This document shows positions 34,329 through 35,515 of a DNA stretch of 64,000 bases, one piece after another. The notes below the pieces were generated by a model. The model did no database searches and had not been told where the DNA came from. It was given only the letters and a program-made list of their open reading frames with translations. The stretch is from Escherichia coli (GTDB lineage Bacteria; Pseudomonadota; Gammaproteobacteria; Enterobacterales; Enterobacteriaceae). Numbering within the stretch: the first letter of the stretch is position 1; every line of letters begins with the position of its first letter. A program made the translations under genes and the position numbers. Where the stretch lies: assembly GCF_003790525.1 (NCBI RefSeq), contig NZ_CP033632.1. One strand, written 5' to 3'.

Positions 34329-34991
34329 ATGCTCGCCTGGAGGCTGAATTTGCAGCTGAGAATGAACATACCACCCAGGGCGACTAGGACTGTTTTTTGT
34401 GTCGGTAGCGGTCCGTCACTCACTCGTGAGGACTGTGCTGCTATAGAAAAAACTGGCTGTTCAATCATCGCGGTTAACAATTCCTGGCAGATGTTCGATG
34501 ACATTTATGCCTTATACGCCGGTGATTTGTCATGGTGGAAGCAATACGGATCCACCATACCGGGAGGGAAATTCCGCAAAGTGACAGCCAACCTGGCGGC
34601 GGCGAAATCATTTTCGTTGGAGTACAGGCGATATTGTGGACCGGCGGAAGGGGTAAATAGCGGCGCGCAGGCTATCAGTCTGGCTGCTGAATCAGGGGCT
34701 GAAGTAGTTGTATTAGTCGGCTATGACTGTTCTCTGCAAAACGGCCTTCATTGGCATGGCGCGCACCCTCAAGCCCTACGGAATCCAACGCAGGTGTCTA
34801 TTTCAAAATGGCAACAGCAGTTCCTGGATACCCGCAAAAAACACGCAGATTTACATATTTTGAATGCAAGTAGGAGCAGTGCAATTCAATGTTTCCCAAG
34901 AATAAATTTAGAGGCAGTGATCGCGTTATTATCGTCGGCAGTGGCCCAAGCGCCGCAAACTTTGTTGCGCCGCGCGGAGTGCCGATTATAG
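34329..34991 (+). CDS. GSGPS-motif Rossmann-like protein (DUF115/MptE-like or GT42-like), paralog A
   Basis: VFCVGSGPSL...IIAVNNSW...LVGYD; probable true start ATG 34362. Confidence 0.45.
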   Translation: MLAWRLNLQLRMNIPPRATRTVFCVGSGPSLTREDCAAIEKTGCSIIAVNNSWQMFDDIYALYAGDLSWWKQYGSTIPGGKFRKVTANLAAAKSFSLEYRRYCGPAEGVNSGAQAISLAAESGAEVVVLVGYDCSLQNGLHWHGAHPQALRNPTQVSISKWQQQFLDTRKKHADLHILNASRSSAIQCFPRINLEAVIALLSSAVAQAPQTLLRRAECRL

Positions 34992-35515
34992 CGGTCAATG
35001 GGGCCATCGACTGGCTGAACCGCGCTTCTTATTTTTTCACACTTGATCCATCGGCAGACAATATGCGGCGCGTTGGTCGTGGCCGCCGTCGCCGTGGTGT
35101 TTGTTATTGCATGGCACTACCCGATGTTAAAGAACGTGAAGTCAGAGACGGCGTTCTGTGCTTCCGTCGTGTGGCTGAACGTGGCATGGAGCCAAAAAAT
35201 ATGAATTCTCCCGAGTGGTGGGCGTGGCGCTGGTCCGCACATTTCGGACTTTGCGAAGATGAGAATGAAATTGCCAGCGGCAATAGTGCATATGGCGCTC
35301 TGAACCTGGCTTTCCATATCGGATTCAAACATGTCGCCCTGGTGGGCGTTGACGCTACACAAGAACCACGCGTTCACTCCGGCGGCACGCCAAAAAATCT
35401 AAGTCACCTGCCTTTGTTATTCCAGTCTGCGCGTGAACAGATTGACGTTGTTTCATGCGGGAAAATGGGAGGTATTCCGCAGATGACTCTTAAAGAATGG
35501 CTGAAGAATACATGA
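34889..35515 (+). CDS. GSGPS-motif Rossmann-like protein, paralog B
   Basis: [10 protein letters not shown]...[10 protein letters not shown]...LVGVD; overlaps paralog A by about 100 nt. Confidence 0.45.

Follow-up and report, generated by a model that had tools for sequence, protein, structure and literature searches.

Two overlapping genes at positions 34329–35515 of a 64,000 nt stretch of Escherichia coli DNA (NCBI RefSeq assembly GCF_003790525.1, contig NZ_CP033632.1; the whole stretch is called the window) encode PmgO and PmgP, two anciently diverged single-domain paralogs. Together with a third protein, PmgQ, they recur in nearly constant order in phages of different lineages. Judged from their sequences and partners, the data suggest that pmgO, pmgP and pmgQ constitute one conserved glycan-building cassette, and a non-essential accessory role of this kind is the best reading, with about an even chance of being right. 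This part of the window is bacteriophage P1: bases 33300–37200 match Punavirus P1 MH422554 with 99.9% identity and the P1 reference AF234172 with 98.2%, and the latter annotates the pair as pmgO and pmgP with exactly the same overlap (hdmB and hdmC in phage P7). The genes are already known and have been annotated since 2004 as "putative morphogenetic function". New here are the definition of the cassette, its fusions and tailoring partners, its usual location in head modules, and the mechanism that conserves the overlap. P1 is among the most widely used phages in bacterial genetics, and our literature search found no paper on the function of PmgO, PmgP or PmgQ.

PmgO and PmgP Are Diverged Paralogs

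The gene pmgO (34329–34991, + strand) encodes 220 amino acids as annotated; an alternative start at 34362 gives 209 amino acids, which is nearer to the length of the homologs. The conserved domain of PmgO stops near 34935, and the last ~18–25 amino acids are a variable tail read from the N-terminal codons of pmgP (34889–35515, + strand, 208 amino acids). Both proteins carry the shared motifs that had been noticed in the original prediction, CVGSGPS, IIAVN and LVGYD in PmgO, and IVGSGPS, IIAVN and LVGVD in PmgP. As pairwise BLASTP reached just the N-terminal 36 residues (E 0.003), family alignments were built from 326 PmgP hits and 206 PmgO hits. The resulting family profiles (compared by hhalign) align over 162 columns with 97.5% probability, an E value of 8.6e-12 and 24% identity, and the alignment spans both proteins. 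In both families strand 1 is followed by GSGPS, strand 2 by IAVN and strand 3 by a motif with an Asp, and both also share N-S-[AG] followed by a helix and G-x-D. Each protein also cross-matches the PHROG family of the other, and the AlphaFold models of the two have the same top structural neighbours.

The AlphaFold2 models, with a mean confidence (pLDDT, predicted local distance difference test) of 93 for PmgP and 88 for PmgO, support the original guess of a DUF115/MptE-like, GT42-like fold. The predicted structures show the fold of the solved PF01973 members (Maf, PDB 5mu5; MptE, PDB 8sd5), and Maf is the top structural match for both. Of the GT42 traits, the N-terminal G-x-G-P-S loop and a GT42-type fold are present. 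Precomputed PF01973 matches were found on some homologs of both families, while PmgO and PmgP of P1 themselves match this family below threshold. By their modelled fold, the P1 proteins are transferase-like and stand at the periphery of the PF01973/GT42 superfamily, below the Pfam threshold. This fold is common to two chemistries, glycosyl transfer from a cytidine monophosphate (CMP)-ulosonic acid and diphosphoryl transfer from ATP.

A comparison with the solved relatives shows clear differences. Maf of Magnetospirillum magneticum (5mu5) has ~600 amino acids with N- and C-terminal substrate-binding domains and uses the catalytic acidic residues E324 and D415 plus a conserved Ser, whereas PmgO and PmgP are bare catalytic domains of ~200 amino acids with 16–18% identity to it. 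Maf acts on flagellin; its flagellin-binding terminal domains are missing from the single-domain phage proteins, the cassette includes no flagellin, and no flagellar or nonulosonic-acid synthesis genes were seen near it in the loci with neighbours that we examined. The GT42 enzymes Cst-I and Cst-II of Campylobacter jejuni (PDB 2p56, 1ro7) act on lipooligosaccharide (LOS) and have a C-terminal membrane-association region; the alignment of Cst-II with the two family profiles is non-significant (probability 3–7%). MptE, an archaeal 6-hydroxymethyl-7,8-dihydropterin pyrophosphokinase (8sd5), and thiamine pyrophosphokinases transfer a diphosphoryl group from ATP to a small alcohol; in the phage loci examined, no cofactor-pathway context was seen and the partners are glycosyltransferases and methyltransferases. 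Since they fall below the Pfam cut-off and lack the accessory domains of Maf, PmgO and PmgP should not be filed as Maf proteins or as sialyltransferases. RefSeq and PHROG label PmgO "alpha-2,3-sialyltransferase" and PmgQ "glycosyltransferase". To our knowledge, E. coli K-12 makes no CMP-sialic acid (CMP-Neu5Ac), so the former name, taken literally, is very unlikely to be correct and applies at the level of the fold only.

The Overlap of pmgO and pmgP Is Genuine and Conserved

The two open reading frames (ORFs) had been predicted to overlap by about 100 nt in different frames. The overlap comprises 103 nt (34889–34991, + strand), and pmgP is in the −1 (+2) frame relative to pmgO. The ATG at 34889 is the sole in-frame start upstream of the invariant IIVxSGPS of PmgP, and the N-terminal MF/LP... 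is kept in relatives. This ATG arises as xxA-TGy on a conserved Cys codon of the C-terminal "CFPR..LE" motif of PmgO. The same Cys-codon start is shared by P1, Cronobacter phage JK004, several P1-like phage-plasmids, Citrobacter phage phiNP and other enterobacterial prophages, and it persists in relatives of just 41–57% identity. A Shine-Dalgarno-like AGGAG (34872–34876, + strand), with a putative role in translation, lies 12 nt upstream of the pmgP ATG within the codons for the conserved "ASRS" of PmgO; AGGAG in the "SRS" codons is also found in JK004 and in loci L099–L103 of the P1-like group. With the start codon and the putative Shine-Dalgarno sequence of pmgP both inside the last conserved motif of pmgO, the two genes are probably translationally coupled.

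The length of the overlap varies from 103 nt in P1 to 100 nt in loci L089 and L092, 94 nt in phiNP, 70 nt in JK004 and L099–L103, and 37 nt in EP_H11. In the versions from Pseudomonas, alphaproteobacteria and jumbo phages it is as short as 4–13 nt, and PmgP lacks the N-terminal extension of ~10 residues there. The tails of PmgO past "..LE.." likewise differ in length and are of low confidence in the model (pLDDT 54–75). In P1, an 11-residue stretch of the PmgO tail is the alternate-frame reading of an 11-residue stretch of PmgP. As the tail is another reading of PmgP codons, selection in the overlap acts mainly on the pmgP frame.

It is extremely unlikely that the overlap is an artefact, either of a sequencing frameshift or of a programmed −1 frameshift yielding a PmgO-PmgP fusion. 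Such an origin would fit the constant −1 frame of pmgP with respect to pmgO, and a natural PmgO-PmgP fusion protein is known from a metagenome (P0241). In P1, two heptamers of the type X_XXY_YYZ lie in the pmgO frame inside the overlap, TTTCCCA (34890–34896) and AAATTTA (34902–34908), and a −1 slip at either would join PmgO to PmgP. However, neither heptamer is present in JK004, L103, phiNP or L089, and we therefore rejected programmed frameshifting as a conserved mechanism. A sequencing frameshift, which the original prediction had considered as a possible refutation, is excluded by the identical arrangement in 19 independently sequenced P1-type genomes, its persistence in the 41–57% relatives, and a start built on a conserved Cys codon; moreover, both ORFs specify a whole domain and have a start codon and a Shine-Dalgarno sequence of their own. 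The overlap is genuine, old and conserved.

Because of the overlap, deposited annotations drop one gene of the pair. PmgO is left unannotated in phiNP (L086 4492–5094) and JK004 (L168 2932–3570), and PmgP in EP_H11 (L087 5001–5636). In locus L003 the automatic call starts PmgP at a GTG and thereby cuts off the GSGPS motif.

PmgQ and the Composition of the Cassette

The third conserved member of the cassette is PmgQ, encoded by pmgQ (36186–36887, + strand; hdmD in P7) and predicted to be a GT8/glycogenin-like retaining glycosyltransferase (phrog_1962, glycosyltransferase). The P1 protein has a DxD motif ("LDLDT") and a C-terminal "FHGKPRPR"; in the family alignment "LDLDT" and "FHGxPRPW" are invariant or nearly so. 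When the PmgQ profile was compared to the PDB, the Skp1 alpha-galactosyltransferase Gat1 (6mw5) was matched with an E value of 2.2e-8 and glycogenins with 1e-4 to 1e-2; the match to Pfam PF01501 is weak (3/14 members, best E 0.033). PmgQ thus shows the traits of GT8, namely the DxD, the C-terminal HxxGxxKPW-type motif and homology to members of this family. Glycogenin and Gat1, which have the same pair of motifs, are retaining transferases of the cytoplasm with proteins or protein-linked glycans as substrates.

We examined ~37 loci, some of which are duplicates of the same phage. Most of them hold homologs of PmgO, PmgP and PmgQ, and the order is nearly always PmgO, PmgP, a variable slot and PmgQ; this is so in phages as different as P1, Pseudomonas prophages and the jumbo phage XacN1. 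The exceptions are a few loci without PmgO, a few that are cut at a contig end, and one with PmgO after PmgQ. The slot contains ppp in P1-type phages and is empty in JK004; elsewhere it is filled by class-I S-adenosylmethionine (SAM)-dependent methyltransferases, a PF03407-like nucleotide-sugar transferase or a GT-B-like protein. A TylF sugar-O-methyltransferase domain is fused to the N-terminus of PmgQ in XacN1, and the metagenomic phage contig L171 has both an FkbM methyltransferase and a sulfotransferase in addition. When 1.84 billion representative proteins were searched, only 542 related clusters were found; natural fusions are among them, namely PmgO-PmgP, PmgP-PmgQ, PmgQ-PmgP, PmgQ-PmgP-methyltransferase and methyltransferase-PmgP. 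These glycosyltransferase and methyltransferase partners strongly argue for assembly and tailoring of a glycan, and against a cofactor-type pyrophosphokinase.

The original prediction had grouped the pair with the VRR-NUC nuclease gene upstream (pmgM, 33587–34165) and the phosphatase gene downstream (ppp, 35497–36189, + strand; lambda NinI-type Ser/Thr phosphatase), and had not named PmgQ, the actual partner. Neither neighbour is a conserved member of the module. pmgM accompanies the pair in near-identical P1-type genomes only and was not found in the other phage lineages examined. Phage D6 has ppp and no pmgO, pmgP or pmgQ, while JK004 has all three of these genes and no ppp. We consequently rejected both pmgM and ppp as module members; ppp, which fills the variable slot between pmgP and pmgQ, is an insertion of the P1 lineage.

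Some further observations were made on individual loci. In D6, a relative of P1, ppp (L167 3947–4639) lies among genes of the lambdoid nin-region type and outside any pmg operon, which indicates that ppp moves independently. In the Xanthomonas jumbo phage XacN1 (L088 4303–6946) the genes of the trio overlap by 4 nt and adjoin ribonucleotide reductase genes, and the ORF after the trio encodes a protein of 1088 amino acids with a PKD-like domain. In L171, the segment that separates the portal/MuF genes from the major capsid gene (3919–9123) forms a tailoring block of unusual richness, with a PmgQ-like gene, the FkbM and sulfotransferase genes, a gene for a double MptE-like protein, and three ORFs without assigned function.

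The Cassette Usually Lies in Head or Packaging Modules

In the HK97-like prophages L004, L005, L093, L095, L104 and L105 the cassette follows the portal-protease-capsid genes or the head-tail connector genes. It occupies the gap from the portal/MuF genes to the major capsid gene in L171, and adjoins terminase genes in L089, L096 and phiNP. The cassette is thus usually found inside head or packaging gene modules. Prophages of Citrobacter, Pseudomonas, Ochrobactrum/Brucella, Alcanivorax and others encode PmgP homologs with 50–60% identity. Among the records carrying host names, in a survey that was not exhaustive, all hosts are Proteobacteria; this distribution rests on the named records, as a scan of a genome collection with strict patterns gave only 7 loci.

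Function of the Cassette

In P1, pmgO, pmgP, ppp and pmgQ are dispensable for plaque formation, as seen with CRISPR interference (CRISPRi) knock-downs and in-frame deletions, and deletion of pmgO, pmgP or pmgQ leaves anti-restriction and plating unchanged. A strict "morphogenetic function" is not supported by this dispensability. A role in defence or anti-defence was also rejected, considering that PADLOC gave no meaningful match and that there is no anti-restriction phenotype. Since the in-frame deletions of pmgO, pmgP and pmgQ already exist (Gonzales et al. 2022), the function of the operon can be tested cheaply. For the first gene of the operon, pmgN, the published results disagree: it is essential by CRISPRi (efficiency of plating 1.4e-2) and non-essential in the deletion survey. 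Simple polarity on the genes that follow does not account for the discrepancy, as knock-downs of pmgO, pmgP, ppp and pmgQ were without effect.

The genes pmgN, pmgO, pmgP, ppp and pmgQ are transcribed in one C1-repressed operon. We propose that, during lytic growth, the three-enzyme cassette would assemble a short glycan on an acceptor that faces the cytoplasm. PmgO and PmgP, probably glycosyltransferases as judged from fold and partners, would act as minimal Maf/GT42-like transferases that each add one residue from a nucleotide-activated donor. PmgQ, as a retaining enzyme, would add an alpha-linked hexose from a uridine diphosphate (UDP)-sugar, and in other phages additional methyltransferases, a sulfotransferase or further glycosyltransferases may tailor the product. 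CMP-ulosonic acids are the donors of the solved relatives, which makes CMP-Kdo (Kdo, 3-deoxy-D-manno-oct-2-ulosonic acid) the obvious candidate in E. coli. Maf enzymes produced in E. coli can attach Kdo to Ser/Thr by O-glycosylation (bioRxiv 10.1101/2020.06.03.131540), and CMP-Kdo is available in every named host, all being Proteobacteria; this makes CMP-Kdo a reasonable, though unproven donor, which we put forward tentatively and with more doubt than confidence.

The acceptor is the weakest step of this proposal and is unproven; virion proteins are the leading candidate and lipopolysaccharide (LPS) is the main rival. The likeliest acceptor would be one or more virion structural proteins, by analogy with virion glycosylation in mycobacteriophages, a possibility that we rate somewhat below even. 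The mycobacteriophages Che8 and Corndog/cluster O are reported to have tandem glycosyltransferases, sometimes with an O-methyltransferase; these are not needed for growth and assemble O-glycans on subunits of the capsid and tail tube, as shown by mass spectrometry (Freeman et al. 2023, as summarised in PMC11600133 and PMC11256854). The architecture of the cassettes resembles that of PmgO-PmgP-(methyltransferase)-PmgQ and both are phage-encoded and dispensable, whereas the enzyme families differ, the hosts are Actinobacteria rather than Proteobacteria, and glycosylation is demonstrated there and inferred here. In its most specific form, the proposal is that the cassette is the Gram-negative counterpart of this system and O-glycosylates capsid or tail proteins from CMP-Kdo by a PmgO-PmgP heterodimer. 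The heterodimer is suggested because PmgO and PmgP are fused in some phages; the glycan would be short, sometimes methylated or sulfated, and begun or extended by the two minimal Maf-like enzymes. This full version is rather doubtful as a whole. The virion modification suggested by the original prediction is live but unproven. Should virions be glycosylated, phages of Gram-negative bacteria would join the actinobacteriophages, the only ones for which this has been shown so far, with a bearing on phage therapy (immune recognition) and on transduction vectors.

Several results weigh against a glycan-building cassette that acts on the virion. Against PF01973 (MptE-like / DUF115 / Maf_flag10; gathering cut-off 34.6 bits) PmgO scores 23.3 bits (E 5.9e-5) and PmgP 21.2 bits (E 2.6e-4), both below the cut-off, and the sequence profiles of the two proteins reached no solved structure in the PDB. 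The hhalign alignments with Cst-II and WaaZ are below significance and at the level of motifs; for Cst-II the E values are 0.005 and 0.014, the probabilities 7% and 3%, and just the helix-strand-GxD motif is aligned. At ~200 amino acids, compared to 632 for Maf, PmgO and PmgP are also without the extra substrate-binding domains of this enzyme. In P1 itself, the cassette is found between tail/baseplate operons, not beside head genes, and is under a C1-controlled early promoter. It moves among phages with unrelated capsids (the myovirus P1, HK97-like siphoviruses, a jumbo phage), and an acceptor from the host, such as LPS, would explain this portability no less well than a virion protein. Finally, the papers on the virion proteome and electron cryomicroscopy of P1 do not mention glycosylation.

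The alternative that we take most seriously, although we consider it rather unlikely, is the editing of a glycoconjugate of the host envelope, with the LPS core on the inner leaflet as the most plausible target. Kdo-like residues would be attached by PmgO and PmgP and an alpha-hexose by PmgQ, and the altered receptor surface would exclude superinfecting phages or stop progeny from re-adsorbing to debris. The receptor of P1 is the LPS core, and the named hosts are LPS makers without exception. Bacterial relatives of all three enzymes act on LPS or LOS: the GT42 enzymes Cst-I/II sialylate LOS, GT8 includes WaaO and WaaJ (PmgQ versus WaaO, hhalign E 6e-4), and the sole, weak NCBIfam match of PmgP is the KdoIII transferase WaaZ (E 0.099; hhalign E 2e-3). 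The similarities to WaaZ and WaaO are, however, statistically non-significant, and the best solved relatives of PmgQ are the cytoplasmic, protein-directed GT8 enzymes Gat1 and glycogenin, not LgtC. C1 control, by which the P1 operon is on early after induction, fits receptor editing in the lytic cycle; it also means that the cassette is repressed in the lysogen and cannot serve lysogenic conversion. Transfer between phages with unrelated virion proteins is in favour of LPS, but most lineages other than P1 carry the cassette inside the head/packaging operon and not at moron or conversion sites by the integrase or att. If LPS is the target, a new receptor-editing function of the lytic cycle would be found; if neither virion nor LPS is, the corrected annotation remains.

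Two further alternatives concern the chemistry and the substrate. PmgO and PmgP could be ATP-dependent pyrophosphokinases like archaeal MptE or thiamine pyrophosphokinase, which would activate an alcohol, either a small molecule or a sugar, by adding diphosphate and might in this way supply PmgQ with an unusual donor. Their best Pfam family, although sub-threshold, is MptE-like, and they are near MptE in size (about 210 amino acids) and free of the Maf accessory domains. We nevertheless regard this as improbable: Maf is the top structural match for both proteins, the loci examined showed no genes for pterin, folate or thiamine metabolism, and the pair is accompanied by, and in some cases fused to, glycosyltransferases and sugar-type methyltransferases. 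At the position after strand 2, thiamine pyrophosphokinases have an Asp. PmgO and PmgP have an invariant Asn there (AVN), as in the "RCNQ" of Cst-II, which is a lead only and not a test. Glycosylation of phage DNA, a hypermodification that protects against restriction, is less probable still, and with it the modification of nucleic acids that had been suggested from the sequence. Phage glycosyltransferases that hypermodify DNA are known and can be located near packaging genes, and the nuclease gene upstream had been taken as a hint in this direction; known DNA glycosylation requires, however, 5-hydroxymethylcytosine or 5-hydroxymethyluracil from TET/5mYOX or thymidylate-synthase-like enzymes (bioRxiv 10.1101/2023.12.21.572611). 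No such base-hydroxymethylating enzyme was seen in the cassette loci with neighbours examined, and the methyltransferases present are of small-molecule/sugar types (TylF, FkbM, class I), not DNA methyltransferases. The unchanged anti-restriction and plating of the P1 deletions also speak against DNA as substrate, and we know of no hypermodification of P1 DNA.

Operon Structure and Annotation of the P1 Segment

According to the annotation of the P1 reference, the operon pmgN-pmgO-pmgP-ppp-pmgQ is located downstream of the late promoter LPpmgL and behind the promoter PpmgN and the C1 operator Oppp. The small ORF pmgN (34190–34387, + strand; hdmA in P7) overlaps the annotated start of pmgO, and its own start differs by annotation (34232 in P1, 34190 in P7). 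The predicted sigma-70 promoter PpmgN (34133–34159, + strand) and the operator Oppp (34172–34188, − strand), which agrees with the C1 consensus at 13/17 positions, were transferred from the P1 reference with a coordinate offset of 30299. Scanning the sequence between pmgN and pmgQ revealed no internal promoter and no convincing terminator.

We also scanned the window for the 17-bp consensus of the C1 operator. With ≤3 mismatches six matches were found, compared to 0.2 expected by chance; they are at 23029–23056 (an overlapping pair), 33265–33281, 36889–36954 and 39030–39046. The annotated Oppp, with 13/17 positions, fell outside this threshold.

Public databases spread two misleading names for these proteins, "alpha-2,3-sialyltransferase" and "norphogenetic protein". 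The latter, the RefSeq name of PmgP, goes back to a typing error in the P1 GenBank notes (AF234172; pmgM, pmgP) and is now an official product name. One 90% cluster so named has 982 member sequences and spans Escherichia, Salmonella, Pantoea, Erwinia, Citrobacter and Enterobacter.

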